Shown piece after piece: positions 14,885 through 32,684 of a stretch of 64,000 nt of DNA. The notes under the pieces were generated by a model. That model was not told the DNA's origin. It ran no database searches and was given only the letters and a program-made list of their open reading frames with translations. The stretch is taken from assembly GCA_949545755.1 (NCBI GenBank), contig CATITK010000002.1, forward strand, positions 3,516-67,515, given 5' to 3'. Source of the stretch: Polaribacter sejongensis (GTDB taxonomy: Bacteria; Bacteroidota; Bacteroidia; Flavobacteriales; Flavobacteriaceae). The number at the start of each line of letters is the position of its first letter. The first letter of the stretch is position 1. The position numbers were made by a program, and so were the translations under genes.

Positions 14885-15098
14885 TGTTTGTTCTATTATT
14901 GTGATTGCAAATATACAATTAACACAAAAAAGAGCCGCTTTCACGCTTCTCTTTTTTTCTTTTTGCTAACAATGTCTATCCAAAGAGTTTCCCTAGTTCT
15001 ACTATCTCCGTTTCTAATTGAAATTTTAATGTAAAATGCGGAACGATGTTATCAGAAAAGTCTACTTAATATTTAAAAGCACAAAGCGATCTTCTCGA

Positions 15099-15869
15099 CT
15101 AAATGCCCCATTTTAAAAAGTATTTGATTGCAGAGAAAGTATGTCTAAAAAATAGATTTGGACTTTTAGAGGAGCCTTGTTTTAAGACGTGTATAATTTC
15201 TTCTTGAGGAAAATATAATTTTTTCATTCCGAGGTTGTCTATCTTTTTACAAATATCAACATCCTCCATATATAAAAAATAACGTTCATCAAAACCTTTT
15301 AATTTGACAAAATCATTGGTTTTATATAAATGAAAACATCCTGTAATATATTCAGCATAAAAAGGTTCTTTTAAATTTTTATCTCGGTAAGTACCTTTAA
15401 AGATGGTTGATTTAAAAATTGTTTTTAGCAAAGGAAATCTTCTTGCAAAAAGTTCTAAAATATGAGGATACCTTCTACAGGAATATTGATGTGCACCATT
15501 TGGAAACAATACCTTTGGAGCAATCATTGCTATTTCACTATTCTTTTCTAGTTCTAAAATTAGGTTTTGAATGACCTTTTTTTGAAAAACAACATCTGGA
15601 TTTAAAACTAAATGATATTTAGAGGTATTTTCTATTGCTGTTAAAATTCTATTATGTCCAGCGCCAAAGCCAATATTTTTACCCACAGGAATGTATACTA
15701 TTTCTGGATAATTAAATGTATCTTCAAAAAGTTTTTTAGGTGTATTATCTATTAAGTACAATTTCTTTTGTAGCGGCAATTCTAAAAAACATTGTATTGT
15801 TTTCGTAAGCTCTTTTAAATTTTCATTATAGAGAACAATAGAAACTGATATTGACAACTTTTCATTCAT
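15099..15869 (-). CDS. Glycosyltransferase family 2
   Basis: SIVLYN, NIGFGAGHN, LNPDV and GFDERYFLYMEDVD motifs. Confidence 0.9.
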   Translation of the reverse strand: MNEKLSISVSIVLYNENLKELTKTIQCFLELPLQKKLYLIDNTPKKLFEDTFNYPEIVYIPVGKNIGFGAGHNRILTAIENTSKYHLVLNPDVVFQKKVIQNLILELEKNSEIAMIAPKVLFPNGAHQYSCRRYPHILELFARRFPLLKTIFKSTIFKGTYRDKNLKEPFYAEYITGCFHLYKTNDFVKLKGFDERYFLYMEDVDICKKIDNLGMKKLYFPQEEIIHVLKQGSSKSPNLFFRHTFSAIKYFLKWGI

Positions 15870-15886
15870 GGGGGTGACTAGGGGGA

Positions 15887-17239
15887 TTAATAAGCTTTTT
15901 CTTCTCCTTTAAAAACACTAATTAGTGTTTGAAAAATTATTTTTATATCTAAAAAAAACGACCAGTTTTCAATATAAAAAACATCTAAACGCACTCTATT
16001 TTCAATGTCAGATTTTTTTTGTACTTCACCTCTATAACCAGATACTTGTGCTAAACCTGTTATGCCGGGTTTTACAGAGTTTCTAACAATATAATGATCT
16101 ATTTCTTTTAAATACTTTTCTGTTTGAATATTCATATGTGGTCTTGGGCCAATAACACTCATATCTCCTTTTAAAACATTAAAGAATTGAGGTAATTCAT
16201 CTAAACTTGTTTTTCTTAAAAAAGCGCCAATTTTGGTTATTCGTTTGTCATTTTTTGTTGCAGAAATTTTATGTGATAAAGAATTTGTTTTCATAGAACG
16301 TATTTTGTAACAACAAAATTGTTTACCATCTACACCATCTCTAATTTGCTTAAAAAAGAAAGCTCCTTTAGAATCTATTTTAACGATTACCCATAAAATT
16401 GGAAGTAACCAAGATAGTAGAAAAACGCATATTATAATAGAAAAAAGAATATCAAAAATTCTTTTTATTATATGGGTTTCAATCATTTCAAAAGGCAATT
16501 TTCTTCTTTTTAAAATTGGCAAGGTTCCATAATACTCTAATTCAAATTTCTTGCTGTAAATGGCTTTATTTTCTGGAATTAAATTAAAATCAATTTTATG
16601 TGTATTGCAAAATTGCCTGAGTTCTTTATGTTGTTGCCGACTAATTGAATTTACTTCACAATAAATTTCATCAATACTATCTTTTTCTAAATATAATAAG
16701 CCATCTGTAATAGTTCCTAAATATTTTGTTTCTTTGCTTTCTTTGTCTGAAAAAAAGCCTGTGAAGCGATACCCTAAATCTTGCCTCTTAATAAATAAAT
16801 TAGCTACATTTTTAGCCGATTTGTTACTTCCAAAAACAATAACATTTCTGAAATTATTACCAAACCTTCTATATGTTTTAAGGAAATATAAGGAAATAAA
16901 TTTTGCAATAAATAAACTACCTAAAATAAGTGATAGAGAAACAAACTGTTTATTAATAATATACCCTTCTCTAAACAAGCTGAAAAAAGTAAAAAAAGAC
17001 AGTATAAAAATAGAAAATTGACCAAATATTAAATTTAGTATTTTCAGTCCTCCTGTTGTTCTATAAACTTTATAGTAATTAGTATAATAAGATGTTAACA
17101 ACCAAACTAGATTTACGTACAATAAGAAACTCAAATTAATATAATTTCTATCTTTAATAAAATAGACAATTATATTAATAATGAGAATGTCAATAATAAT
17201 ATTGATAGGTTTTATTAAAAATGAATATCTTGGTTTCAA
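15887..17239 (-). CDS. Polyprenyl-phosphate sugar phosphotransferase (WcaJ-like initiating transferase)
   Basis: TM N-terminus with KRIFDI, YKIRSM, LRKTSLDELPQFFNVLKGDMSVIGPRP and KPGITGLAQV. Confidence 0.92.
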   Translation of the reverse strand: MKPRYSFLIKPINIIIDILIINIIVYFIKDRNYINLSFLLYVNLVWLLTSYYTNYYKVYRTTGGLKILNLIFGQFSIFILSFFTFFSLFREGYIINKQFVSLSLILGSLFIAKFISLYFLKTYRRFGNNFRNVIVFGSNKSAKNVANLFIKRQDLGYRFTGFFSDKESKETKYLGTITDGLLYLEKDSIDEIYCEVNSISRQQHKELRQFCNTHKIDFNLIPENKAIYSKKFELEYYGTLPILKRRKLPFEMIETHIIKRIFDILFSIIICVFLLSWLLPILWVIVKIDSKGAFFFKQIRDGVDGKQFCCYKIRSMKTNSLSHKISATKNDKRITKIGAFLRKTSLDELPQFFNVLKGDMSVIGPRPHMNIQTEKYLKEIDHYIVRNSVKPGITGLAQVSGYRGEVQKKSDIENRVRLDVFYIENWSFFLDIKIIFQTLISVFKGEEKAY

Positions 17240-17270
17240 TTTCTAGTTTAGTATAAACAGTTAGTATTGG

Positions 17271-18182
17271 TTAATTTTTTAAAATCTTATGGTTGTACAT
17301 TTTCGTTAAGGTATTTTCAATACTATATTTACTATTGGAAAAAGAAATAAAAGAGCTCAATTTTTCTGCGGATCCTTTTAGCATCACGATTTCATTTTTT
17401 CGAATAAACGCTGGGTTTACCTCAACTTCCATAGTATATCCAGACAACTCGTCCATTGTTTTTAAAATTTTCTTTATGTTAATGGCAGCACCACTGCAGA
17501 TATTCACAATTTCTGACTTCACCTCTGAGGTTAGTAATTTTGTATACGTTTCCACAACAAAGCCTATATCATTAAATTCTCTATACACGTCTATATTCCC
17601 AAGGGCTATCTTTTTTAGCCCTTTCGCATAATGCTCAATTATTTTAGGAATTAAAAACTTTTCTTCTTGATGTATACCTGTATAATTAAACGGTCTTGTA
17701 ATGATAATATTTTGTCTGTCAAAAAATGTTTTTACCATATTCTCCATCACAAGTTTGCTGTTTCCGTAGTGGTTTACAGGTTGTGGGCAAAACGTTTCAA
17801 AAAGTTCTCCTTCTATATTTCCATAGACCGTTGCACTACTTATCATTACTATTTTTTGGGGAACATAATCTAGTTTTTCAACGGCATTTAAAAGATTTAA
17901 CGCTCCAAAAACATTTACCTTATATATATTTTCCTTGTTATTTTCTGCAACAAAAGAGATGGCTGCTAGATTTATAATATATGCTGGTCTTACTTTTTCT
18001 AGTACTTCTAGAATTGCATCTTCATTGAGGATATCGCAAGAAAAATGAGTTTCTTTTTTAGGAATGTCAATCACTGTGCCAAAAACAGTAAAGCCTTTAG
18101 AAGTCAAATAGGTTTCTAAATGCTTTCCAGTAAAACCACTTATCCCTGTAACAAGAATGTTTTTATTAGAAGGTGCTTCCAT
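17271..18182 (-). CDS. GDP-4-keto-6-deoxy-D-mannose reductase-like SDR (Rmd/Tld-like)
   Basis: [21 protein letters not shown] and RPFNYTG motifs; overlaps gmd. Confidence 0.7.
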
Positions 18183-19200
18183 TTATATTTCTTTCTATAT
18201 CTTTTTTAATCATCATCTCACACAGCTCTTCAAGGGTAGTTTTTGGTTTCCATCCTAAAATTTCATTCGCTTTAGAAGCATCACCAATCAATAAATCCAC
18301 TTCAGCAGGTCTATAAAATTTTGGGTTTATTTTGATCAGTACCTTTCCTGTTTTGGCGTCTATCCCTTTCTCATTTTCATTTTTACCTTCCCAAGTAATG
18401 TCAGTATCTATAGCTTTGAATGCCAAACTCACAAAATCTCTCACTGTTTGTGTTTGGTTGGTCGCTAATACAAAAGTGTCTGGCTTGTCTGCTTGCAACA
18501 TTCTATACATGCCATCTACGTATTCTTTGGCAAAACCCCAATCTCTTTTGGCATCAATATTTCCAAGCTCCAATAAGTCTTGTTTGCCAAGGTGAATTTT
18601 TGCAACTGTGTCAGTAATTTTTCGTGTCACAAATTCTTTGCCTCTTAATGGAGATTCGTGGTTGAATAGAATACCACTCGATGCAAATAATCCATACGAT
18701 TCTTGATAATTGAGTGTTGTCCAATGAGCAAAAACTTTGGCTACTCCATAAGGACTTCTTGGGTGAAATGGCGTTTGTTCGTTTTGTGGAATTGCTTGTA
18801 CTTTACCAAACATTTCGGAGGTAGAGGCTTGATAAAATTTTATTTTTGGATTGATGGTTCGGATGGCTTCCAATAAATTTAAAACACCAACACCTGTGAT
18901 GTTTGCCGTTGCTATGGGTTGCGTAAATGATACGCCTACAAAACTTTGTGCTGCCAAATTGTATATTTCATCAGGCTCTACTTTAGAAATTATTCTGTAA
19001 GCACTAGATAAATCAATTAAATCGTACTCTAATAGTTGAAGATTTGGGTGATTTTCAATACCTAACTCTTGAATTCTCCAAAAATTTGTTGAACTTGTTC
19101 TTCTATAAGTACCAAAAACGTGATATCCTTTTTCTAATAATAATTCAGCTAAATACGCTGCATCTTGTCCTGTAATACCTGTTATTATTGCTTTTTTCAT
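18166..19200 (-). CDS. gmd: GDP-mannose 4,6-dehydratase
   Basis: [35 protein letters not shown] and [16 protein letters not shown] motifs. Confidence 0.96.
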
Positions 19201-19201
19201 T

Positions 19202-20350
19202 TTAGCTATTTTCTTTCCAATTAATGTATAATGTCTCTATTGTTTCTTTGAATTCTTTTTCAAATCGATTTTTACTGAACCGTTCTGCGTTTTTTCTGAT
19301 TATTTTTCTGTCAAAAGACGCTTCATTTTTTTCGAAACAATTAACCGCTTCTAACAAAGAAGATGACGTTTGTTCTTTAAAAAATATCCCTGTGACACTT
19401 TTATTGTCAAATTTCCCATCAGATGAAACTCCTATGATTGTCTCTAAAGCACCGCCTTTTCCATAAGCAATCACAGGAACTCCGCAGGCTTGGGCTTCAA
19501 TTGGTGCAATCCCAAAATCTTCTTCCGCTGCAAATATAAAAGCTTTTGCGCGTTTAATCATATCTAACATCTCCTCTTTTTCTACATATCCTTTAAGTTC
19601 GATGTTGGAGCTTGCTAGTTTTTTTATTTTTTTAAAGTCTGGACCATCTCCAATGACTATTAATTTTTTATTAGTTTTTGAAAATGCCTCAACAATTAAA
19701 TCAATTTTTTTGTACGGAACCATTCTTGAGCAGGTTATATAATAATCACTTGTCTCTGTTGTTAAGGTAAATGAGTCTGTATCAACAGGTGGATAAATAA
19801 CAATAGCTTCTTTATTGTACACCTTTTTTATGCGTTTGGCAACATAATGAGAAATTGCAATATAGTAGTCGGGTCTATTTGTTGTTGAGAAATCCCATGC
19901 CCTCAGTTTAAATAAAAAATATCTTGCTATAAGTCCTTTGATTCCTGAATCTAATTTTGATTCTTTAAGATACTGATGATACAAGTCCCAGGCATATCTA
20001 GCAGGTGAGTAAACGTAGGCTATATGGAGTTGGCTAGGCTTTGTTAGAACCCCTTTTGCGACTGAAGAAGACGATGACAGTATTAATTCATAATCACTTA
20101 AATCAAACTGTTCAATCGCAAAAGGAAAAAGGGGAAGGTATGTTCTGTACTTTTTTTTCCAAAATGGCAGTTTTTGAATAAAAGAATTCTTCGTTTTTTT
20201 TCCTTTAAGTATGAGGTCTCTATGGGGGGCTGATAAATCATCTATCAAAGAAAAATGATCAAAGTCATCCCAAATATTGGTAAAACTCTCCACACATCTT
20301 TCTGCGCCACCATAGACTGTATACCAATCATGAATTAATGCTTTTTTCAT
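19202..20350 (-). CDS. Glycosyltransferase family 4 (WbaZ-like)
   Basis: ALIHDW...[17 protein letters not shown] and [15 protein letters not shown] motifs. Confidence 0.88.
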
Positions 20351-21573
20351 AAGCGTCTGTCTATAATAAAAAATAAAGTATTAAATAAAGTAAAAAAAAC
20401 AACCCCTAACTGTCTTGCAAATAAATTCTCTGTAAGCAATGCTAAAAAGATTGTTATCAAAAAAACTTTATATAGTGATGATTTTGAGTGATACCAACCA
20501 TAGAAAATTGAACTAAATAAAATTATAAAGCCAAAAACACCATAAGATATTATCAAATCTATATATTGGTTGTGCGTATTATAATTTCTTTTTTTAAAAT
20601 CGTCAAAATTATTATATGAAAAATTATCATAACAAAGTTGCAAACTTTCAGAAACATTATTTTTCCCTATTCCAACAAATATATCATTTTTTATTATGTT
20701 ATACGAACAATAATAAATACCATATCTAAAATTTACCAAATGACTTTTGTCGTTTAATTTACCTGAGGGTAACTCAAGTTTTGTGTTAAAAATTTCAGCA
20801 ATTCTTTTTTTTACAGGAGAATTAATAACCAGAATAATGGCAAAACTTGTGAATAGAAATAAAGTTGATATTTTCCTTAAACTTCCTTTTATTTCTTTGA
20901 AAGTCAAATAAAATATTATCACAAAAAAAGTACCTAATGCCATTCTTGCAGAAAATGTAACTATTGAGGCAAGTAGCACAATAGATGAAAGAAATACAAG
21001 AATCTTAACGTGTTTTTTTGAATTTGTTTTTATTATAAAAAAATAGGCTATAAAAATTGAAAAAACAAAAAACAATCCCAGGTAAGGCAAATGAATACCA
21101 GTAGTTTCTGCAAAGAGTCCTCTAAAAACAGGATGATAATAACTATCTTTTTCTAATAATTTGAAAAACCCCGTTTGGAAAATTTTAAACCAACATATCA
21201 TTGCTAAGATAAGATTAGAGCCAAAAAAAACCAACAAGATATTCTTTAAAGTTTTAGTGGCTATATAATCTTTATTAATAAAAATAAACAATGGAAATAA
21301 CAAGAACAATGCGTCAGTCTCAAGAAACTTTATTAAATTATTATCAAAACCTGAAAAAATATAATTGACCAATAAAAAAATATAATATAAAGATAAAATA
21401 GCAATATTTCTATAAGAAACTTTACTTAAACTGTTATAGGATTTTTTTTTAAAAAGAACAATTACAGACATTATGAACCAGAAAGCCAAAATAAAAGTAC
21501 TAATTCTAATACTAAACAACGGAAAACTGGCAACTAACAGAAAACTATAATTATAAAACTTTGTTAGCTGCAT
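20347..21573 (-). CDS. O-antigen ligase/Wzy_C family membrane protein
   Basis: Multiple TM helices, SARMA, R.GIY, GIG and THNQYI.....YG..G. Confidence 0.75.
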   Translation of the reverse strand: MQLTKFYNYSFLLVASFPLFSIRISTFILAFWFIMSVIVLFKKKSYNSLSKVSYRNIAILSLYYIFLLVNYIFSGFDNNLIKFLETDALFLLFPLFIFINKDYIATKTLKNILLVFFGSNLILAMICWFKIFQTGFFKLLEKDSYYHPVFRGLFAETTGIHLPYLGLFFVFSIFIAYFFIIKTNSKKHVKILVFLSSIVLLASIVTFSARMALGTFFVIIFYLTFKEIKGSLRKISTLFLFTSFAIILVINSPVKKRIAEIFNTKLELPSGKLNDKSHLVNFRYGIYYCSYNIIKNDIFVGIGKNNVSESLQLCYDNFSYNNFDDFKKRNYNTHNQYIDLIISYGVFGFIILFSSIFYGWYHSKSSLYKVFLITIFLALLTENLFARQLGVVFFTLFNTLFFIIDRRL

Positions 21574-22703
21574 TGTAATTCTTCTTTTAGCAATTTTAAG
21601 TAATGATTTTCTTCTAAATATTTCTGTCCATTTCTAACTAAATTATCTTTACTAATTGCATTGCTTAATAAATCACTTATTGCTTTTTTAAAAACTTTTG
21701 GTGAATCAGCCAATAGAAATTCTTTACCATGCTGTAAACCTGTACCCTCAGCACCTACTGATGTAGATACTAAAGGCATACCATTAATAATCGCATTTAT
21801 AGATTTAATTTTTACGCCAGCACCATGAAACATTGGGTTTATAAACACAGATGCATTTTTGTATAATCCAGATAAAGAAGGTATATTAAAATGAAATTCT
21901 AGATTGGTATATTCATTAAATTTTTTGATAAGTTTATCTGTATTTTTACCGTTTGTACTACCTGCTATTACTAGTTTGTAATTTTTTTCTTTTTCGCATA
22001 ATATTTTATGAACATTCTCCAGATACCATGTTAAACCTGCTATATTATTTGACATAAAAAGAGAACCTATAAAAAGTACATTGGATTTTGTTAACTCTTG
22101 TTGTTTAATTTCTGAAATAGAAAAGGGTGAAGGTAACCACATCGTATTTTTTGCGTTACACCTTAGTTGTTCGTCTTTGGAAATAAACCAAATTCTATCT
22201 ACTTTTTTATAAAGTTCTTTTGCATAGTTTTTAAACTTCTTAGACTCTATAAAATAATAGGTTTTTTTAAAAATATTGGTTGTGCTTTTTGCTAAATTTT
22301 TGAAATATAAAGACTCGTCATTTTGACTCCTAAGTATCAATTTATTGTATTTAATTGTTGGATTCTCTATTACTTCAGCAACATAATCTCCTTCTAATAT
22401 TAAAAAATCATATTCTTTATTTATTTTTATTGTCTTTAAACTATCTCTTGATAAAACTTGCAGTGGTTTATTTTTAAGAATATCCTGAAATTTATTTTTC
22501 CTTTTTGCTTCGAATAGATTTTGAACATAGTTATTCACAAAGGACAACTCTTCTTTTGAAACAGTTAAGGTGTCTGTAAATAATAAATCTATTTGAAAAC
22601 CTAAATCAAATAACCCTAAAATTCTGTTCCAAACATCTACCTTACCACCGTGTGTAGCTGGGTATGGGAAATAACCAGATACTAACATTATCTTTTTAAC
22701 CAT
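21564..22703 (-). CDS. Glycosyltransferase family 4
   Basis: FPYPATHGG, FIGSL...NN..GL.W and GAGVKIK....A...GMPLVST..GAEG motifs. Confidence 0.85.
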   Translation of the reverse strand: MVKKIMLVSGYFPYPATHGGKVDVWNRILGLFDLGFQIDLLFTDTLTVSKEELSFVNNYVQNLFEAKRKNKFQDILKNKPLQVLSRDSLKTIKINKEYDFLILEGDYVAEVIENPTIKYNKLILRSQNDESLYFKNLAKSTTNIFKKTYYFIESKKFKNYAKELYKKVDRIWFISKDEQLRCNAKNTMWLPSPFSISEIKQQELTKSNVLFIGSLFMSNNIAGLTWYLENVHKILCEKEKNYKLVIAGSTNGKNTDKLIKKFNEYTNLEFHFNIPSLSGLYKNASVFINPMFHGAGVKIKSINAIINGMPLVSTSVGAEGTGLQHGKEFLLADSPKVFKKAISDLLSNAISKDNLVRNGQKYLEENHYLKLLKEELQCS

Positions 22704-23994
22704 AAATATTTTTATTAAATTTAGTTCTTAAAACATCTATGAAAGCTAAAAAAAACCATATTTCAAATTTAACACTAAAGGTAACATATAATAAACTGCT
22801 CAAGATGATATACAATAAAGGAATTTTGATAAATGATAAGTTTTTATCTTTTATTTTAGACAAAAATAAGTATCTTCTAACAAAGAAAAGATAATAAAAT
22901 AACAGAAATGGAATGCCTCCAAAAATCAAGTTATCAAATAAATAGGTTTTGGTTGATAAGTTTTTTGAAGTAATCAAATACTTTTTCACTTCACCTAATT
23001 CAAACTTACTCATAATTGAAGATTCTAAAACATTTTTTAAATATTCTGGGTAGTAGGTAAGATAAGGACCCCAACCCACTCCTAAAGGGTGAGAAACAAA
23101 GGTATTCAAAGCTCCTAAATAAGAACTAAATCGAGTTCCAAAAGTAACACTTGAGTAAAGTTTAGAAGAAACATTACTATATAATATTGAAAAAACATAA
23201 ACCCCAAACATTATTAAAAAAAAACCAAAAAAGAATAAAAATTTTCTAGTTTTTTTATTATTATAAAAATATTTTATAACTAGAGGTAGAGTGGAAATTA
23301 TAAAAATTAAAAGATACCCTTTTGATTCACTTTGTACACTATAAAACAAGGTAAAAAATGATGCTAAAGAATAAATTAAAAATTTAATTTTAATAGATTT
23401 TTTTAAGTAATTTGACAAATAAATAGTGACAAAAGAGACTATAGTAAGAACACTTCCCACCCAACTTTCTTCCATTGTCAATAATCTAACTCTCCAATAT
23501 TTTTTACTGTCAGAATGTATAAATGCCGCAAATATGTCTTCTTTTTTTAAAAAATAGATTTCAAAAACCAAATATATTGCTAATAGCAACAGCATTCCAA
23601 ACATTGCTCTAAATAATATTTCAAATCTTGTTTCGTCTTTATTTAAAAACATAAAAACAAACTGATAGTATATTAAAATAATTACAGGATATAAAGACAT
23701 TTTTATAGACTTAAGAATAATGTTTTCTCCTAAAAAGTAAACTTCTTGCTTAAAAATAACAATCCACAGAACGTGAACTATGGTAACTAAAATTAAATAT
23801 AAAATATAGAATATAAAATATTTGGTATAAAATGAAATTTCTATTTTTTTATTTTTTAAAATATAAATTAAAAATAGTGGTGTTAAGAAAACTATAGGAG
23901 ACCTAGCTATTTCTCCAAAATAATTTACTAGAGGGAAATCCTGGTAAACAGATACGAGAAGTAAACAAAATAAAAAAATAGTCCTTAAAAGCAT
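22696..23994 (-). CDS. Wzy-like polysaccharide polymerase (putative)
   Basis: Very hydrophobic polytopic protein with R...TMEES, SKG, TR and HPLGVGWG motifs; lies inside the glycan locus. Confidence 0.6.
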   Translation of the reverse strand: MLLRTIFLFCLLLVSVYQDFPLVNYFGEIARSPIVFLTPLFLIYILKNKKIEISFYTKYFIFYILYLILVTIVHVLWIVIFKQEVYFLGENIILKSIKMSLYPVIILIYYQFVFMFLNKDETRFEILFRAMFGMLLLLAIYLVFEIYFLKKEDIFAAFIHSDSKKYWRVRLLTMEESWVGSVLTIVSFVTIYLSNYLKKSIKIKFLIYSLASFFTLFYSVQSESKGYLLIFIISTLPLVIKYFYNNKKTRKFLFFFGFFLIMFGVYVFSILYSNVSSKLYSSVTFGTRFSSYLGALNTFVSHPLGVGWGPYLTYYPEYLKNVLESSIMSKFELGEVKKYLITSKNLSTKTYLFDNLIFGGIPFLLFYYLFFVRRYLFLSKIKDKNLSFIKIPLLYIILSSLLYVTFSVKFEIWFFLAFIDVLRTKFNKNIYG

Positions 23995-23996
23995 CT

Positions 23997-24995
23997 TTAT
24001 TTAGTTATTAAAATTTTCAAAAAACTAAAACCTAACCTAAGCTGAAACCTTCTAAATCTATTAAAAATAATCAATAAACTTGTAAGCCAAAAAAATATCT
24101 TGTTTTTTGAGAATTTTTGAAAGAAAATTTTTCTGCTTTTGAAAACATTCAATTCCGAAAAAGAGGATCTTTTTTGAAAACATGAAGAACTACCTATAGA
24201 AGAACCTTCTTTATGAAAAACTAATGATTTCTCACACCAATCAATACTCCATCCTTTTTTTGCTGCTCTAAATTTCCAATCTATTTCTTCATAGTACAGA
24301 AAATAATCTTCACTTAATACTCCTACATCCTTTAAAAAATCATTAGAAACAAGCATAGATGCTCCTATAACATAATCTATATTTCTAAATTTTTGTTTTC
24401 CTGTATTCACACTCATTCCTTCACCAAGGTGTTTTGTTGTATAAGAAAAAGGATTAAAAGCACCTCCAATTGCTTGAATTTTATTAGCTTCAAAGTAATA
24501 GATTAACTTACTTCCTAAAATTCCAATTTTAGAAAAAGTATTTTTCCGCATATAATCAATCTGATATTGAAGGGCATTTTTATCGACAACTGTATCGTTA
24601 TTTAATATCCAACAATACCCATAATCTTCTCTTCTCATTGCATAATTCATAGCAATATTATTCCCAGCTGAGAAACCTAAGTTTTTATCTGCTTTAATTA
24701 TCAACAAAGTCTCTTCGTAAAACTTATTTTTACTTTCCGATTCAGAAATAATTATATAGTCAAGTGGTTTAGGGTACAAAGGGTCAACAATTTTAGGAAA
24801 TGCTGTTGGGATTTCTCGAAAATCAGGATCTGTAGCCCAACTCTTTATAGAACTTACGGATTCTAATGTTGGTGAATTATCAACTACAATAATTTGAAAA
24901 TTATAATAATTTAATTTCAAAACACTTTCAAGACACTCTATTGAGTCTTTCCAACCTTTGTAGTTAAGTAAAATTATGTAAACTTTTTCTTTCAC
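23997..24995 (-). CDS. Glycosyltransferase family 2
   Basis: IILLNY, VVDN, NLGFSAGNN, WILNND and EDYFLYYEEID motifs. GTG start. Confidence 0.9.
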   Translation of the reverse strand: MKEKVYIILLNYKGWKDSIECLESVLKLNYYNFQIIVVDNSPTLESVSSIKSWATDPDFREIPTAFPKIVDPLYPKPLDYIIISESESKNKFYEETLLIIKADKNLGFSAGNNIAMNYAMRREDYGYCWILNNDTVVDKNALQYQIDYMRKNTFSKIGILGSKLIYYFEANKIQAIGGAFNPFSYTTKHLGEGMSVNTGKQKFRNIDYVIGASMLVSNDFLKDVGVLSEDYFLYYEEIDWKFRAAKKGWSIDWCEKSLVFHKEGSSIGSSSCFQKRSSFSELNVFKSRKIFFQKFSKNKIFFWLTSLLIIFNRFRRFQLRLGFSFLKILITK

Positions 24996-25011
24996 TAATG
25001 ATTATGCTTTT

Positions 25012-25155
25012 TTAGAATTTTTCATATATATACCTTGTAATTTTTAAAGCAATACCCTCTAAATCTTTATGACTAGATTTAAAAACACTCTCAAGACATT
25101 CTATGCTGTCTTGCCAGTTTTTGTAATTTATAATTAGAAAGGTTACTTTAAAAAC
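25012..25155 (-). pseudogene. Internally deleted GT2 gene remnant
   Basis: Manual translation gives VFKVTFLIINYKNWQDSIECLESVFKSSHKDLEGIALKITRYIYEKF*. The first ~26 aa resemble the N-terminus of the adjacent GT2 (KVYIILLNYKGWKDSIECLESVLK). No start codon. Confidence 0.8.
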
Positions 25156-26346
25156 TTAAATTCTTTTTAACATTCCTAAAAAATTTTTTATTAACCGTAG
25201 TGGATTTTCTTTTAATGAAGCCTTGATTAAGAAATTAACGTTATAATTAGGTGTTGATCTACCAACTAATTTTAAAGCAAATAACCTAGCTAATAGATTT
25301 TGTTTTCTTTGTTTTTGATAGGGTTGCATTTGTGCTATTTCTGAGCTAGAAAAATTTTTACCAGACATAGTGATGTACCCAGCATCTATAACGGCGTTCA
25401 TTAATGTCATTCCTTTTTTATTTCTAATAATAATTAAACTTTGTCCTTTTTTTTCATCAAACGAAGGATATCCATTCTCTGAAGTCTCCCAAGCATCGGC
25501 ACAGGTTATATCAGCGAATTCTCCAGTACCATCTGCACATATTTTACAACGAAACTGTAAATGCTTGTTCAGTACAGTTCCCCAGGACTCGTTGTAAGTC
25601 ATTTTGTGAGTATTCCTTTTTTTATCCTCAATTTTAAAATACCCTGGCCACCCTTCTCCTCTGTATCTCAATGAAGCAATATCTTTCTTTTGTAATTTAA
25701 ATTGTTCAATGATTTTTGTTGTGGCTACTTGGCTCGGAACGCCAGCGCACATAAAAGAAAGAAGGTGTTTAATTTTTGTTTTTGCCTCTTCATTTTTTTT
25801 TATAAAATTTCGGACACCAACGATATCACATGGTTTGCCTATGATTGCAATTGAAGTATGAGCTTTTAAAATCTCAACAAGGTTAATCAGAGTAGCCGAA
25901 GGTGCATATCTTGATCCAGCATTGCTAAGAACCTCTTGGCTGGTATAGCTCGTTTTGTAAGTATTGAGATAGGGCTTTGTTTCTGAAGATCCAATATGTA
26001 AAACACACTCAACTCTTTTTTTGTCTAGTAAATAGGATGCAACAGCTGTTAATGCGCCTCCAGACGATCCTGAATACCTAACCTTTTCGTTGTTTGCATG
26101 TCCTGATGAAATAGACAAAAAAGGACCCCATAATGGATCGTGATTTGTAGAATCGTCATGTTTGGCATTAATTCCTGGACAAATTTCTTCGAAAAAATTA
26201 TTCTCTGATTTGGTTAATTCTTGTTTAAAAGTTGGTCTCAAAAAACCTTCATTGTTATAAGAAACAGCAACTTTTTCAGTTCCGAAAACAGATTCACAAA
26301 TACCACAACCAGCACATAGATTGTTTTTTAATACTTTGCTACTCAT
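25156..26346 (-). CDS. FrhB/FdhB-family (F420 hydrogenase beta subunit-like) Fe-S protein
   Basis: CAGCGIC...ICPG, SSGG, GSRY, GKPC, FMCAGVPS, YRGEGWPG and RCKICAD motifs. Confidence 0.85.
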   Translation of the reverse strand: MSSKVLKNNLCAGCGICESVFGTEKVAVSYNNEGFLRPTFKQELTKSENNFFEEICPGINAKHDDSTNHDPLWGPFLSISSGHANNEKVRYSGSSGGALTAVASYLLDKKRVECVLHIGSSETKPYLNTYKTSYTSQEVLSNAGSRYAPSATLINLVEILKAHTSIAIIGKPCDIVGVRNFIKKNEEAKTKIKHLLSFMCAGVPSQVATTKIIEQFKLQKKDIASLRYRGEGWPGYFKIEDKKRNTHKMTYNESWGTVLNKHLQFRCKICADGTGEFADITCADAWETSENGYPSFDEKKGQSLIIIRNKKGMTLMNAVIDAGYITMSGKNFSSSEIAQMQPYQKQRKQNLLARLFALKLVGRSTPNYNVNFLIKASLKENPLRLIKNFLGMLKRI

Positions 26347-27545
26347 TAGTTATCTATGTTTTCTAGACTCAATTGTTCTCTCTTATTTTCGTTAAGTAAC
26401 ACAGATTTAATCTCTTTTTTGATAGAGATAGCAACCAGTATCTTGTTTATCAATCCATCTATTGTATCCTCTTCTAAATGATTAACATCAATCACTAACC
26501 CCTGTTGTTTAAACATTTTGAATGTCCCTTCAAATTTATAACTATAAGAGAGTCCAATTGTTGGGACTGAGGTAGACAATGCTGCGATACAAGAATGCAT
26601 GCGTGATCCCATAAAAAAGACTGTTTTAGAAATAACATATTTCAACTCTTGAGCAGAGTAATCCTGATCAATAAAAGAAATTTTGCTCGCTAAGTCAGGA
26701 TTGTCTTTTACAAATTTTCTGGTTCCTTCCAAGTCATCTTCAACGTTAGGAGAAATAGAATTATAAGTATGTGGGATTAACATAACCTCGTAGCCCTCTT
26801 TAATAATTCTTTCGACCAACTGCTTTAAAAAAACAGGGTAATTATTATATTTACTATCTAGACTTTTGTATCTATTTAAATACATCAATCCACTGACATT
26901 AATACCAACAGTGTTGGGCTTTACCTCAACAGGTATTTCTTTAGGGTTCATGTATACCGCCATGTCTATTGATAATTCTTTTTTAACACCTATTTTATCT
27001 AAAAAATTAAAGGCCTTTATATCTCGCACATATAATTTATGAAGTCTTTTTAAAATATGTGCTCCTAAAAATTTGCCAATAACAGTGTCAAAAGGACCTA
27101 ATGTTTGAGGTAAAAAAACAAGCGGCTTTTTCCAGCTGAGTATTAATTTTGAATCTGTAAAGTGTCTGATTATTCTTCTGGATCCATAAATATCACTAAA
27201 ACTATCGCCTTCATTTATATCAAAAACTATATCGCTAGATTGTATCAGTTCTGAAACTTCAAGCTTTGATTTTACACCAAAAAATTTATATAAATATGCT
27301 TCTTTTAAAGACTTTAAAATTTCATGTTTTGTAAAATAGCATAATTTTACTTTTACAATTTCACTTGATATGGTTAATTCCTTTTCATGTGTCGTTTGCT
27401 GTCCAACACATAGTAAGGATATTTTTGCGTTTTTGTAATTATTTTTTAGAAGTGTAATTGCCCCTACTCCTAAAGCATTTACACCTTTATTATCGCTTTC
27501 AAGAGATGCCCCAAGAAGGAGGATGTTATTTTTGTTTGTTATCAT
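26346..27545 (-). CDS. Polysaccharide pyruvyltransferase (WcaK/AmsJ-like)
   Basis: NKGVNAL, GDSFSDIYG, PQTLGPF, VRD, GSRMHSCIAALS and YSYKF motifs. Confidence 0.88.
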   Translation of the reverse strand: MITNKNNILLLGASLESDNKGVNALGVGAITLLKNNYKNAKISLLCVGQQTTHEKELTISSEIVKVKLCYFTKHEILKSLKEAYLYKFFGVKSKLEVSELIQSSDIVFDINEGDSFSDIYGSRRIIRHFTDSKLILSWKKPLVFLPQTLGPFDTVIGKFLGAHILKRLHKLYVRDIKAFNFLDKIGVKKELSIDMAVYMNPKEIPVEVKPNTVGINVSGLMYLNRYKSLDSKYNNYPVFLKQLVERIIKEGYEVMLIPHTYNSISPNVEDDLEGTRKFVKDNPDLASKISFIDQDYSAQELKYVISKTVFFMGSRMHSCIAALSTSVPTIGLSYSYKFEGTFKMFKQQGLVIDVNHLEEDTIDGLINKILVAISIKKEIKSVLLNENKREQLSLENIDN

Positions 27546-28158
27546 CTAGACTGTTAATTTTATAGAACTGAGACTTACTATACATAAAATGCAAGTTATT
27601 TGTAAGTTCCTTTTTGGTTAAATTGTATATTTTCTTGCGTTCTAATAAATCTATAGTTTGTTGGTCAAATCTGTAACGAATAAGTTTAGCCGGATTCCCT
27701 GCAACTATAGAGTAAGGGGCAACCTCCTTAGTGACAACACTTCCTGCTCCAATAACGGCGCCGTTACCTATCTTTTTAACAGATGGCAAAATTATAGCTT
27801 GAGATCCAATCCATACATCATGCCCTACCTTTAGTTGATGCCTGATAATAGTTTCTTTTTTAACCATTTTCAAAGCTACATTATACAAAAAAGGATGGGT
27901 AGTTGCCCATTCGACACCGTGGTTACCATTGAACACTTTAATTCCTGACGCAAAAGAACAATAATTACCTATCGTTGTTCCTTCTGGAATTTCATCTGTA
28001 AAACATCCATAAGAAAATTTCCCAATATTGATGTTTTTATTTATGCTAAAATATTTTCGTAATAATATCGAATGTATCTGATTCTTCTTTAAGAAATGTA
28101 ATATAACTTTCTCAAATAATGACACCTTACAAACAAACAACATTAATTTAAGCTTCAT
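27526..28158 (-). CDS. CatB/Vat-like hexapeptide O-acetyltransferase
   Basis: IGNYCSFA, VGHDVWIG and IGNGAVIGAGSVVTK.V.PYSIVAGNPAKLIRYRF motifs. Confidence 0.88.
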   Translation of the reverse strand: MKLKLMLFVCKVSLFEKVILHFLKKNQIHSILLRKYFSINKNINIGKFSYGCFTDEIPEGTTIGNYCSFASGIKVFNGNHGVEWATTHPFLYNVALKMVKKETIIRHQLKVGHDVWIGSQAIILPSVKKIGNGAVIGAGSVVTKEVAPYSIVAGNPAKLIRYRFDQQTIDLLERKKIYNLTKKELTNNLHFMYSKSQFYKINSLDDNKQK

Positions 28159-28175
28159 ACCTCAAAATAAAACGT

Positions 28176-29369
28176 TTATATCTTTTTTTTTTGTGTTAAC
28201 GATTTATAAATTTCATTAAATCGAAACATATACCTTATAGTTGAATAAGAATATAAAATAATGTAAGAACTTAATAAACCATAAACCCCGTAAATATACG
28301 TTAATAATAGACCGAAGAACATTGAAACGAGAATAAATTCTAAATGAAATTTCGCCTTTTCTTTTTGCAGCTTCAAGACTACCATTGTAACCGCAAATAT
28401 TGCAGCAAACATAAAAATTATATTCCCAAACAATAAAATTATTAATGGATAGTATGCTTCTAAATAAGCCTCCTGCTTATATACGGTCAACAATATTATT
28501 TTTCCGAATAATATAAATAAAACCAAAATGAATACATTTACTAAAATTATTTTTGACCCCGTTTTTTTTAACACTTTTGTCAGTTCTAAAATATTATGCT
28601 TACAAGATACAAACTTTACATATCCCTCTTGAAGTAAAGAAACTGACACTAACAATAATATGTTTGCTATCGAAAAAGCTATTTGATACTGCGCCAGAAC
28701 TTCTGGTTCTAAAATAAAAGAACCAATCACTGTTGGTGCCATCATGTAAATCGGAACTGTAATCATAGAAATTCCATAATATTTTAAATCTAAAAACCTA
28801 GTTTTGATAAAGGAAACTATTTCTATAATAGATCTAATTTGAAACTTAGCTCTTAATAAATGAATGATCAGTATTACGATGTAAACTAGGTTTATAAATA
28901 TAAAATAGGTATAGATTTCGGAATCAAGTAAATAACATGAAAAAGAAAGTATAATAACCGAAACTCCAGAAATTATATTTGTAATTGACATTATATTTAT
29001 TTTTTTTTCTACTTGATAGTATGCTAAAAGAATATTATAAATACTTGTTTCTAGAAATATTTTTATAAGTATTAATCCTGCAAGTGTAGAGTCTTCTGTG
29101 GGAAGAAAACAAAGCCCTAAAAAGATTATTATAAATAACAGTATAGAAATCTGAAAAAAATTAGAACTGTTTATTTTTAGCAATCTATTATTTTCTGAAT
29201 TGACTAATAAATACTCGCTAAAACCAAAATTAGTAACTAATAACAAAACTCCAATTATATTTATGTACGCAGAATAAGTACCAAAAACAGAAACAGGGAT
29301 GGTTCTCGCCAATAGGACTATAAGAAAATAATTAGCCCCTCTTTTTAAAAGATTAGATAGTGTAAACAT
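28176..29369 (-). CDS. Wzx-type oligosaccharide flippase
   Basis: Polytopic membrane protein with an N-terminal LAR......FG.YS...NFG motif, at the start of the locus. Confidence 0.8.
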   Translation of the reverse strand: MFTLSNLLKRGANYFLIVLLARTIPVSVFGTYSAYINIIGVLLLVTNFGFSEYLLVNSENNRLLKINSSNFFQISILLFIIIFLGLCFLPTEDSTLAGLILIKIFLETSIYNILLAYYQVEKKINIMSITNIISGVSVIILSFSCYLLDSEIYTYFIFINLVYIVILIIHLLRAKFQIRSIIEIVSFIKTRFLDLKYYGISMITVPIYMMAPTVIGSFILEPEVLAQYQIAFSIANILLLVSVSLLQEGYVKFVSCKHNILELTKVLKKTGSKIILVNVFILVLFILFGKIILLTVYKQEAYLEAYYPLIILLFGNIIFMFAAIFAVTMVVLKLQKEKAKFHLEFILVSMFFGLLLTYIYGVYGLLSSYIILYSYSTIRYMFRFNEIYKSLTQKKKI

Positions 29370-29868: not shown

Positions 29869-30906
29869 CTACTTCACATAGCTATTTAAATACCTATTTA
29901 ATTTTATTAGAAGTAAAAATAGAATCATGCAACCTGCTCCAAATCCTGTTAGTAAAAAAGCATAATTATTTGTTACACCTTTTATCTTTGAGCCGATTGG
30001 TTGAAAATTGGATAGCACATTAATTACTTCATATTGTGTTGCCTTTTCTAGAGAAATCTCTTGTAAATCTTCATTTATCTCTTTATTCACAGCAAACAGT
30101 TCTAACTCTTTTGCAGTACTATTCTGGCCACCTAAATCGATGTTTGTTCCATTAGATTGTTTGTCTGCCTCGGCAATAATGACCCGCATGTATACTTCTC
30201 TTAAGGAATCTATCTCGATTAAATTTTCGCGATATAAGGAGTCCGTTCTGTTTAAATTCTCGTTGGTTAATACTTTTAATCTATTAAAATATGTATTCTC
30301 TTCTACTGAAGAAATAATAACATTGCCTAATTCCTTAAAAATATCATTCTTTTTTGCTGAAACAGTTACTTTATGAAACCGATAATCATACTTTGTAAAT
30401 GATTTTTCAAAAGCTAAATAATCATAACTTTTTATTGTCAAACTGTCTACAGATAAAATTAAGTCATCGTAGGCGTTAATAATATCACTATCAACGATTA
30501 CAGGTTCAATCCGAAATTCATTAAGACTCGCCGCTGATAATTTATCTAAGTTAAAAGCCGTTGCGATAGCCATTGTATCTGCCTGTATAACCAAATTGTT
30601 GTAGTAACTTATATTTTCATACAACTGTCTTGTGCTTTTAAAATTAGGTTCTAATATTAAGTCTGACTCAAAAGCATCTACTTTTTTCGTTTCTATAAAA
30701 AACCCTAAGGCACCTCCCAAGAGAGCCGCAACAGCTATTTTCAATAAGTTGCTTCTTAAGAATAGAAGGACACTAATTATTCCATGAAAAATACCTCTAA
30801 AAATATTCCCAATAAAATTGAAAATCTTTGAAAATCCTTTTCCTATGATTACAAATAAAGAGCCTAAATCTACTTCTTCTTCGTGGTTATTTTGATTTGT
30901 TGACAT
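29869..30906 (-). CDS. Wzz-like chain-length determinant membrane protein
   Basis: EEVDLGSLF N-terminus, N- and C-terminal TM helices around a periplasmic coiled region; heads the glycan locus. Confidence 0.65.
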   Translation of the reverse strand: MSTNQNNHEEEVDLGSLFVIIGKGFSKIFNFIGNIFRGIFHGIISVLLFLRSNLLKIAVAALLGGALGFFIETKKVDAFESDLILEPNFKSTRQLYENISYYNNLVIQADTMAIATAFNLDKLSAASLNEFRIEPVIVDSDIINAYDDLILSVDSLTIKSYDYLAFEKSFTKYDYRFHKVTVSAKKNDIFKELGNVIISSVEENTYFNRLKVLTNENLNRTDSLYRENLIEIDSLREVYMRVIIAEADKQSNGTNIDLGGQNSTAKELELFAVNKEINEDLQEISLEKATQYEVINVLSNFQPIGSKIKGVTNNYAFLLTGFGAGCMILFLLLIKLNRYLNSYVK

Positions 30907-31049: not shown

Positions 31050-32684
31050 CTATTTTTCAATAGATAATAACGCATTATAATGATCTTGATTATTGAGTAA
31101 ATTAAGGGCTTCAAGAACCGCTAAATCATTTTTTAATTCATACTTATAAACGCCTTCTTGATAGTAGTACCTTTTTAATATTTCTTCTTTTAAAGCGTTT
31201 TTTAAAATATCTTTATTTTTGGAGATTTCAGCAATCTTATCCTCAAATAATTTTTGTTGAATGACCTCATATTCTTTCGAAATATTTTTTGATAACGATG
31301 CTTTATAGGCCGTTTCAAATAGTGATTCCTGTTTTGTAACAAAAGTAGTATCTGACTTTAAGTAAGTTACAAATTGTTTAAATACTAAATCTTCAAAATC
31401 AGCAGCAATTTCAGTTGCTATGGACGCATTGTTGTAATAATAGTTGGTCGAAAAATTAAAGAGAGCTCTCGATTTCAACAACTTTTTAGTTGCTTCCGTT
31501 TTTTTGGTAGTTTTAATGAGTATGTCTGGCAAAATACCACCGCCGTCATAAACAACCCTTCCATTAGTTGTTTTAAATTCATGAATTCCATTGTCAGAAA
31601 ATTTAGGAACTTTCCCATCTTCTCTCCTATTGGCATAATCTAATTCTTGAATACATCTTCCACTTGGCGTATAATATTTGGAAATCGTCACTTTTAATTG
31701 GGTTCCATATGTCAGTTTTCTATAGCGCTGTACCAATCCTTTTCCAAAAGAACGCTGCCCCATAATGACGGCTCTATCATAGTCTTGCAAAGAACCACTT
31801 ACAATTTCTGAGGCGGATGCAGAATGTCCGTTTACCAAAACTACTATTGGAATTTCTAAGTCTAAGGGCTCATTTTTAGTACTGTAGGTATTGCTCCACT
31901 TTTTTACTTTTGCTTTTGTGGTAACAATTTTTTTTCCTTTTGGTAAAAAAAAGTTAGCAATAGAAATCGCTTCTATTAGAGAACCTCCTGGGTTTGAACG
32001 CAGGTCGAAAATCAATTTTTTAACCCCTTCTTTTTGCAACTTTTTAAAGGCTTTTTTCACCTCGGCAGCGGCTTTGTTATTAAAACGCGTTAAGACGATA
32101 TAACCCGTTTCTTCATCTATCATTTGAGAAAAAGGAACAGGGTTTATCTCTATTTTATCTCTAATTATTTCTTTTTGAATGCGTTTTCCTTGTCTTTCAA
32201 TTTCAATTGAAAGTTTACTGTTTGGAGTTCCTTTTAAAAAAGTAGCAAGGAGTTCTTTTTCCATATTTGCTAGCAATTGACCTTCTACAGAAATGATAAC
32301 ATCACCTGCTTTCAAACCTACTTTATCGGCAGAAAAACCTTTATATACTTCATTGATCTCAATGCCTTTTTTGGAATAATATACAGAAACACCAATTCCT
32401 CCATAAGCACCTTCTCTACTAATTTTTGCATCTTCTACCTCTTGCTCATTATAGAAATTCGTGTAGGGATCTAGATCTTTGAGGGTGTTTTTAATGGCTT
32501 TATTTGTTAATTCAGCAGGATTAATTTCATCTATATAATATAGATTTAACTCCTTAAATAAAGTAGTATAAATTTCTATCTGTTTTGCAATTTCAAAAAA
32601 ATTAGATTTAAATGAAAACGACAAAAAGAGGGTTCCTACCAAAAGAATTAGTAGCGTTTTTTTAAACCGTTTAAATTGTATCAT
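31050..32684 (-). CDS. S41 family C-terminal processing peptidase
   Basis: LDPYT, PDZ domain, DLRSNPGG, SASASEIVSGSLQD, SFGKGLVQ and KYYTPSGR motifs. Confidence 0.93.
   Translation of the reverse strand: MIQFKRFKKTLLILLVGTLFLSFSFKSNFFEIAKQIEIYTTLFKELNLYYIDEINPAELTNKAIKNTLKDLDPYTNFYNEQEVEDAKISREGAYGGIGVSVYYSKKGIEINEVYKGFSADKVGLKAGDVIISVEGQLLANMEKELLATFLKGTPNSKLSIEIERQGKRIQKEIIRDKIEINPVPFSQMIDEETGYIVLTRFNNKAAAEVKKAFKKLQKEGVKKLIFDLRSNPGGSLIEAISIANFFLPKGKKIVTTKAKVKKWSNTYSTKNEPLDLEIPIVVLVNGHSASASEIVSGSLQDYDRAVIMGQRSFGKGLVQRYRKLTYGTQLKVTISKYYTPSGRCIQELDYANRREDGKVPKFSDNGIHEFKTTNGRVVYDGGGILPDILIKTTKKTEATKKLLKSRALFNFSTNYYYNNASIATEIAADFEDLVFKQFVTYLKSDTTFVTKQESLFETAYKASLSKNISKEYEVIQQKLFEDKIAEISKNKDILKNALKEEILKRYYYQEGVYKYELKNDLAVLEALNLLNNQDHYNALLSIEK

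Follow-up and report, generated by a model that had tools for sequence, protein, structure and literature searches.

A pyruvyl transferase and its FrhB-like neighbor in a Polaribacter polysaccharide locus: a candidate lactyl-ether module

Introduction

Here, we describe a block of three co-directional genes (28158 to 25156, minus strand) in a 64,000-nucleotide stretch of Polaribacter sejongensis DNA (GenBank assembly GCA_949545755.1, contig CATITK010000002.1, positions 3,516 to 67,515 of the forward strand), which we refer to as the window. The block encodes a hexapeptide acetyltransferase (P0003), a polysaccharide pyruvyl transferase (PvT) of family PF04230 (P0002) and an FrhB-like flavo-iron-sulfur protein (P0001), and it lies inside a co-directional Wzx/Wzy polysaccharide locus (15099–29369). 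On comparative grounds, the PvT and the FrhB-like protein probably act as a two-enzyme module that makes lactyl (O-1-carboxyethyl) ethers, by enolpyruvyl transfer followed by flavin reduction. We set out the evidence for this interpretation, including the linkage of the two genes across phyla, enterobacterial loci whose glycans are described in the literature and a pair of Escherichia coli plasmids, and we weigh the alternatives.

The three-gene block

A sequence-only reading of the same DNA had given the gene order as acetyltransferase, PvT and FrhB-like protein, with overlapping or abutting genes. This is borne out, and the open reading frames (ORFs) lie exactly where that reading placed them (Table 1). 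The stop of the PvT gene and the start of the FrhB-like gene share 1 nt as TAATG, an arrangement typical of translational coupling, and the acetyltransferase gene overlaps the start of the PvT gene by 20 nt.

The acetyltransferase matches Hexapep (PF00132) at 27.8 bits and is Vat/CatB-like in NCBIfam (1e-31), below the equivalog cut-offs. Some 40 residues of its ORF precede the region that matches Vat/CatB/phn acetyltransferase models; translation may in fact begin further downstream, with no effect on the 20-nt overlap with the PvT gene. P0003 probably O-acetylates the same repeat unit on which the PvT and the FrhB-like protein would act. Of the 79 related loci described below, 13 have a P0003-like gene no more than 1.3 kb from the pair, i.e. 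the link recurs but is not obligatory.

Table 1. Genes and features of the polysaccharide locus and its boundaries (positions in the window)
Feature	Position	Strand	Basis
FrhB-like flavo-iron-sulfur protein P0001, 396 aa	25156-26346	-	PF04422 and PF04432 over cut-off
Polysaccharide pyruvyl transferase family protein P0002, 399 aa	26346-27545	-	PF04230 full length
TAATG stop/start overlap of PvT and FrhB-like genes	26344-26348	-	Sequence read
Hexapeptide-repeat (XAT/Vat/CatB-like) acetyltransferase P0003, 210 aa	27526-28158	-	Pfam and NCBIfam
Wzx-type flippase, first gene of the co-directional block	28176-29369	-	PF01943, E 3e-11
GT2	23997-24995	-	Pfam scan
Wzy-like	22696-23994	-	Pfam scan, E 1.5e-4, below cut-off
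GT4	21564-22703	-	Pfam scan
Wzy_C	20347-21573	-	Pfam scan, E 1.7e-11
GT4	19202-20350	-	Pfam scan
GDP-mannose 4,6-dehydratase	18166-19200	-	Pfam scan
Epimerase/reductase	17271-18182	-	Pfam scan
Bac_transf initiating transferase	15887-17239	-	Pfam scan
GT2	15099-15869	-	Pfam scan
purD, one locus boundary	13610-14944		
S41 peptidase, other locus boundary	31050-32684		

The FrhB-like protein

P0001 matches FrhB_FdhB_N (PF04422) with 60.6 bits against a cut-off of 22 (E 1.6e-16) and FrhB_FdhB_C (PF04432) with 115.2 bits against a cut-off of 23.3 (E 3.2e-33). All of the motifs quoted in the sequence-only reading are present, namely C11-x2-C14-x2-C17, C56-P57, SSGG (94–97), GKPC (170–173), MCAG (199–202) and RCKIC (266–270). 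An alignment of 23 homologues (41–77% identity) contains 68 invariant columns, which include C11, C14, C17, C56-P57, S94-S95-G96-G97, C173, C200, C267 and C270. The cysteine and glycine-rich motifs align with GLPC, LCTE, GCKVC and NGG of 8riu_B. Among solved structures, this F420-reducing module from a CO dehydrogenase (PMC11493965) is the closest to P0001 in sequence (E 2e-18).

The invariance of the cysteine motifs, together with their alignment to 8riu_B, points to two complete four-cysteine sets, one N-terminal and ferredoxin-like and the other of the FrhB type. These are predicted to be enough for two [4Fe-4S] clusters and are accompanied by a putative flavin-site motif, GSSGG. The earlier impression that the other ferredoxin cysteine positions look lost did not hold, as there are eight invariant cysteines and no decayed ferredoxin.

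An AlphaFold2 model of P0001 has a pLDDT of 90.8 and a pTM of 0.91. A Foldseek search with this model returned FrhB-fold proteins only, and P0001 is accordingly modeled with an FrhB fold. The best match was again 8riu_B (E 8.5e-25, TM 0.68/0.73), and further matches were to FrhB 9r51_B (5e-20), Fsr (6e-19) and HCAR (1e-15), as well as to FdhB.

The pyruvyl transferase

P0002 matches PS_pyruv_trans (PF04230) over the entire profile (1–280 of 280, E 8.7e-34). Its NCBIfam scores fall far below the equivalog cut-offs, with 72 against 213.1 for CsaB, and 59 against 399 and 52.4 against 727 for WcaK. A sequence search of the PDB with P0002 returned nothing useful. The genome (2.1 Mb in 170 contigs, 89% complete, ~31% GC) holds one FrhB-like and one PF04230 copy, and these are the two that stand side by side in the window.

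Linkage of the two genes across genomes

When each species was represented by a single genome, at least 579 loci were recovered that code for relatives of the 396-aa type. Linkage was counted in 79 of the best 80 of these at least 579 loci, the one remaining being on a cut contig, using our own ORF calls and an iterated PvT hidden Markov model. The relatives in the 79 loci are 37–73% identical and come from Proteobacteria, Bacteroidota, Planctomycetota, Chloroflexota and Verrucomicrobiota. A PvT gene is immediately adjacent on the same strand in 61 of the 79, upstream in some and downstream in others, and lies 1–4.2 kb away in a further 10. Eight have no PvT gene; two of these are on cut contigs and the other six are taken up below. 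The relative in Algibacter pacificus (locus L034), for example, is 67% identical and has an adjacent PvT gene.

The two proteins also occur fused, and fusions within the P0001 subfamily include P0124 (843 aa), P0125 and P0136. Furthermore, the PvTs paired with members of the window's FrhB clade group together in a clade of their own (support 96) with the same inner grouping as in the FrhB tree. Taken together, the adjacency, the fusions and the mirrored trees indicate that the PvT and FrhB-like genes have travelled as a module.

The wider family is large and varied. A whole-library search matched 9256, 3685 and 629 cluster representatives at E-values of up to 1e-3, 1e-10 and 1e-30, respectively. 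Some relatives of P0001 (33–38% identical) are fused to other partners, including a Wzx flippase domain (P0126, 905 aa) and a GT2 (P0131), and eight among P0127–P0135 (694–715 aa) carry the ABC-transporter permease domain PF00528.

In 401 Bacteroidota genomes, FrhB_FdhB_C was found in 81 and PF04230 in 86. All 16 FrhB_FdhB_C matches of the PvT-linked type, including the one in the window, lie within 2.5 kb of a PF04230 match, and one of them is a single 798-aa protein combining Fer4, FrhB_FdhB_N, FrhB_FdhB_C and PS_pyruv_trans. The broader statement that FrhB_FdhB_C always co-occurs with a PvT is false in Bacteroidota, where most matches belong to a separate, PvT-free subfamily. This subfamily is found mostly in one family, matches P0001 at an E-value of only ~1e-4, sits on a very long branch and occurs in unrelated housekeeping contexts. 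Its existence confines the linkage claim to the PvT-linked lineages. The gene-neighborhood comparison proposed in the sequence-only reading, of FrhB_FdhB_C with PS_pyruv_trans, thus showed tight linkage in those lineages, through adjacency and fusion, but not across the whole family in Bacteroidota.

The PvT-free proteins are ~410–440 aa long and have both Pfam domains; within one Bacteroidota family, 62 of the 87 genomes sampled encode them. Eight examples (loci L015–L022, in genomes G016, G098, G206, G126, G166, G198, G130 and G230) stand alone and are never near a PvT gene. Their neighbors encode a biotin carboxylase, AcrB, an AFG1 ATPase, a porin and an SDR protein.

Enterobacterial loci with lactyl glycans

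Non-muramic lactyl (1-carboxyethyl) ethers of sugars have been known in bacterial polysaccharides for decades. The E. coli O124/O164 cluster, which we located through its glf gene, contains, between galF and gnd, wzx, an FrhB-like gene (460 aa), a PF04230 gene, four glycosyltransferase genes, wzy and glf. The FrhB-like gene overlaps the PF04230 gene by 4 bp.

According to a review (PMC7685785), O124 carries glucolactilic acid (D-GlcLA), for which the PvT gene wfeP is held responsible in O124/Shigella dysenteriae 3, and O164 has glucose in its place, owing to a frameshift in wfeP. In three of six E. coli genomes with the O124/O164 cluster, the PvT gene is shorter by 1 bp and falls into two coding sequences, and the FrhB-like gene is intact. 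This matches the published O164 frameshift and identifies wfeP as the PvT gene. The PF04230 enzyme at O124 yields a lactyl ether and not a ketal. The five-sugar O124 unit, presumably started from GalNAc by WecA, needs four glycosyltransferases, which leaves the FrhB-like gene as the only one without an assigned role. In a distant blastn search with the O124 FrhB-like and wfeP genes, no further E. coli serogroup was matched. The statement in the sequence-only reading that this pairing has no established function is, genetically, out of date, given the published role of wfeP in glucolactilic acid formation.

In a quick, midpoint-rooted FrhB tree, the clade of P0001 (support 99) is sister (SH-aLRT 90) to a clade with the O124 protein, the protein from the plasmid described below and four PvT-linked members from Bacteroidota, and the PvT-free Bacteroidota subfamily falls apart from both. 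There is thus moderate support for a common lineage of P0001 and the E. coli O124 protein.

Klebsiella capsules provide further cases. In the tables of a survey of 79 Klebsiella K loci by Pan et al. (PMC4616057), the only 'coenzyme F420 hydrogenase' gene (HG203) is in K66, next to the PvT gene of WcqF, and the only two nitroreductase genes (HG127) are in K22 and K37, where they are listed next to the PvT gene of WclZ. The same source gives K8, K22, K37 and K66 as having PvT genes and capsules that are not pyruvylated. K22 and K37 carry 4-O-[(S)-1-carboxyethyl]-GlcA, according to the title of the 1988 paper by Parolis et al. as cited in a later paper, and K66 stands in the 'beta-D-Glcp-Olac' column of Table 1 of PMC6856556. 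The text of the latter expands 'Olac' as 'O-lactose', and its K37 entry shows that O-lactyl (1-carboxyethyl) is meant.

A partner swap on E. coli plasmids

Two E. coli plasmids, pBDSF8-3_3 (locus L113, 4641–8812) and p30COLEC-2 (locus L115, 2582–6857), carry the same PvT gene and downstream GT2 gene with 99.1–99.7% DNA identity. The 5' part of the upstream flippase gene is also common to both (92.5% identity), whereas the stretch between it and the PvT gene has no similarity. In this stretch, pBDSF8-3_3 encodes an FrhB-like protein and p30COLEC-2 a 341-aa nitroreductase (PF00881). The two plasmids represent a natural swap of the reductase partner, and a model of transfer followed by reduction predicts just this, a single PvT that works with one or the other of two unrelated flavin reductases. 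Plasmid pBDSF8-3_3 additionally carries a second copy, of the nitroreductase–PvT version, truncated by an insertion sequence; in its FrhB-linked copy, the PvT gene contains a 1-nt indel close to the start.

The surrounding polysaccharide locus

In addition to the three-gene block, the locus contains the flippase, two Wzy-like polytopic proteins, four glycosyltransferases, the GDP-mannose dehydratase with an epimerase/reductase, and the Bac_transf enzyme. Of the Wzy_C and Wzy-like proteins, one may be the polymerase and the other a ligase-like protein or a second polymerase. Between the flippase and the S41 peptidase, a 345-aa ORF (29869–30906, minus strand) matches no Pfam or NCBIfam family and has only a sub-threshold 'Lips' match. 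A weak terminator-like hairpin (25092–25113) is present in the 160-nt gap between the FrhB-like gene and the next GT2 gene. A scan for promoters and terminators gave counts not clearly over shuffled background, with 8 terminator-like sites in the region compared with 5.1 ± 2.8.

Proposed pathway and alternatives

The sequence-only reading had suggested pyruvyl transfer followed by reduction to a lactyl ether. Comparative genetics supports this, through the linkage and fusion of the two genes across phyla and through O124 and K66, the antigens of known structure that could be traced to loci with the pair, which have lactyl ethers and no ketal. In the pathway we propose, the PF04230 enzyme would transfer the enolpyruvyl group of phosphoenolpyruvate to one sugar hydroxyl of the repeat unit, and the enol ether would be left in place instead of closing to a cyclic ketal. 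The FrhB-like protein would be supplied with electrons by a low-potential donor, which is probably ferredoxin or flavodoxin rather than F420, and would pass them from the N-terminal [4Fe-4S] cluster through the FrhB-type [4Fe-4S] cluster to its flavin, which would reduce the C=C bond of the enol ether to give the lactyl ether. The hexapeptide acetyltransferase would add a separate, independent O-acetyl decoration. The window pair would then most likely be a distant flavobacterial member of the system assigned genetically in enterobacteria.

Several points weigh against this interpretation. A BLASTP comparison of P0002 with E. coli WfeP found no similarity, so the two are not orthologues, and in the PvT tree (a quick tree with long branches and a midpoint root) they fall on opposite sides of a split with support 97, the clade of P0002 being on the side of WcaK. 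As a result, the outcome, ether or ketal, is unreadable from the PvT sequence, and it is mainly this that keeps us from going beyond 'probably'. The identity of P0001 to the E. coli O124 FrhB-like protein is just 28% (E 5e-24; 396 compared with 460 aa). Six of the 79 loci have full flanks and no PvT gene within 6 kb, yet lie among glycan genes. On the Klebsiella side, the lactyl assignment of K66 rests on a review table decoded by column count (the same count places K37 correctly), and the K22 and K37 loci are near-identical, which brings the independent correlations between structure and gene content down to about three. Finally, searches of the accessible literature turned up no biochemical demonstration for any member of this kind of pair.

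The same end product could be reached by another route, in which the PvT makes a cyclic pyruvate ketal that the FrhB-like protein opens reductively, or in which the reductase acts on a nucleotide sugar before glycosyl transfer. The position of P0002 in the PvT tree, nearer to the ketal-forming WcaK than to WfeP, would suit such a route, as would the assignment of wfeP to nucleotide-sugar synthesis in the review cited above, which writes 'UDP-D-GlcpLA' (PMC7685785). The sequences do not distinguish the ketal-opening from the enol-ether route. We know of no enzymatic precedent for the reductive opening of a ketal, whereas MurB is an example of an enzyme whose flavin reduces an enol ether. We consider this alternative unlikely. 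A further possibility is that the product of the PvT is a normal pyruvate ketal, with the FrhB-like protein performing an unrelated redox step in glycan synthesis, e.g. on a keto-sugar or other substituent, the two being linked only as decoration genes. In its favor, relatives of the FrhB-like protein are also fused to Wzx flippase, GT2 and ABC permease domains, and the six fully flanked loci have no PvT gene. However, the O124 and K66 repeat units contain no ketal and nothing else that would call for an additional reduction, one PvT gene occurs with either of two unrelated flavin reductases, and adjacency in 61 of 79 loci, in both gene orders, together with fusions, across phyla, is far over what mere co-residence in glycan loci would lead one to expect. 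An unrelated redox step is, in our view, quite improbable.

In databases, the name 'coenzyme F420 hydrogenase beta subunit' is still attached to the reductase of organisms without F420. Taken at face value, this name would make P0001 a true F420-dependent or hydrogenase-linked FrhB subunit; alternatively, P0001 could be a functionless, decayed relic. The similarity of P0001 to FrhB and FpoF in Pfam and NCBIfam and the identity of its closest solved structure, an F420-reducing module, speak for the name. Its NCBIfam scores are nevertheless five- to eight-fold under the equivalog cut-offs for frhB (59.5 against 331.5) and FpoF (55.2 against 475), and PRK09325 is also far from its cut-off (73.9 against 269). 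In the 89%-complete genome, where incompleteness precludes proof of absence, we found no PF01996 (CofE), no CofH over cut-off and no CofD-related protein for F420 biosynthesis, nor any [NiFe]-hydrogenase large subunit (PF00374). The sequence-only reading had remarked on the missing hydrogenase partner, and for the large subunit this extends from the window to the genome searched. The hosts of close relatives of P0001 include Pseudomonas, Stutzerimonas, Methylophilus, Sphingomonas and Dechloromonas. The relic version is countered by the 68 invariant columns with all eight cysteines, which indicate that the FrhB-like protein is under selection. Either version seems to us barely credible.

Returning to the lactyl-ether module, we lean, with rather less assurance than for the window pair itself, toward a broader proposal, in which the PvT-linked FrhB-like proteins would form a large class of enol-ether reductases driven by ferredoxin and independent of F420, an iron-sulfur analogue of MurB. 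If so, environmental bacteria would carry lactyl ethers on their surface glycans much more often than one would guess from the handful of solved structures, the class would be interchangeable with partners of the nitroreductase family, and the FrhB family would have gained a new activity. Glycan chemists could then predict lactyl ethers from genomes and distinguish them from pyruvate ketals, which matters for the prediction of serotypes and phage receptors and for vaccine epitopes. The window itself contributes little, as a further, distant instance of the module, to which the present work adds the caveat of a non-orthologous PvT and the plasmid partner swap.

Comparison with known systems

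The closest chemical parallel to the proposed module is MurA/MurB, in which the enolpyruvyl group of phosphoenolpyruvate is transferred to a sugar hydroxyl and then reduced by a flavin to a D-lactyl ether. The resemblance is functional only. There is no homology to the window pair, for which Pfam lists only PF04230 and PF04422/PF04432; the folds of MurA and MurB are distinct, and MurB takes NADPH directly, without iron-sulfur clusters.

The FrhB-fold proteins 8riu_B, FrhB (3zfs/4omf), Fsr (7np8) and plant HCAR (5dqr) have the fold, the FrhB-type cysteine motifs and GSSGG in common with P0001. The F420 modules among them differ in that the host of P0001 has no detectable F420 pathway and P0001 has no partner hydrogenase or dehydrogenase. 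HCAR depends on ferredoxin and not on F420, and the substrate it reduces is organic. By analogy, P0001 probably also uses the site beside the flavin for a substrate other than F420.

Among the ketal transferases of PF04230 (WcaK, CsaB and Pvg1p), CsaB and WcaK provide the nearest NCBIfam models to P0002, which spans the whole family profile. Unlike these enzymes, P0002 has an obligate, co-diversifying reductase partner; in the three loci where the annotated E. coli ketal enzyme gene wcaK is fully visible, no reductase gene lies alongside it. The PvT tree suggests one of two histories, a repeated origin of reductase coupling within PF04230 or an origin of the ketal enzymes from within.

The E. 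coli O124/O164 pair (O124/O164 being equivalent to S. dysenteriae type 3; also S. boydii type 17) has the same two Pfam architectures as the window pair and is likewise co-directional, overlapping and just downstream of wzx in a Wzx/Wzy locus. Both FrhB-like proteins carry the N-terminal CxxCxxC...CP and the GxxC, xCxG and CxxC motifs. The gene order is reversed, with the PvT first in the window and the reductase first in E. coli, and the phylum also differs. Klebsiella K66 and K22/K37, as far as published tables give them, combine PvT and flavin-reductase genes with a lactyl-ether capsule that has no pyruvate ketal. The K22/K37 reductase belongs to an unrelated family. The exchange of an FrhB-like protein for a nitroreductase beside one PvT gene on the E. 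coli plasmids parallels the difference between Klebsiella K66 and K22/K37.

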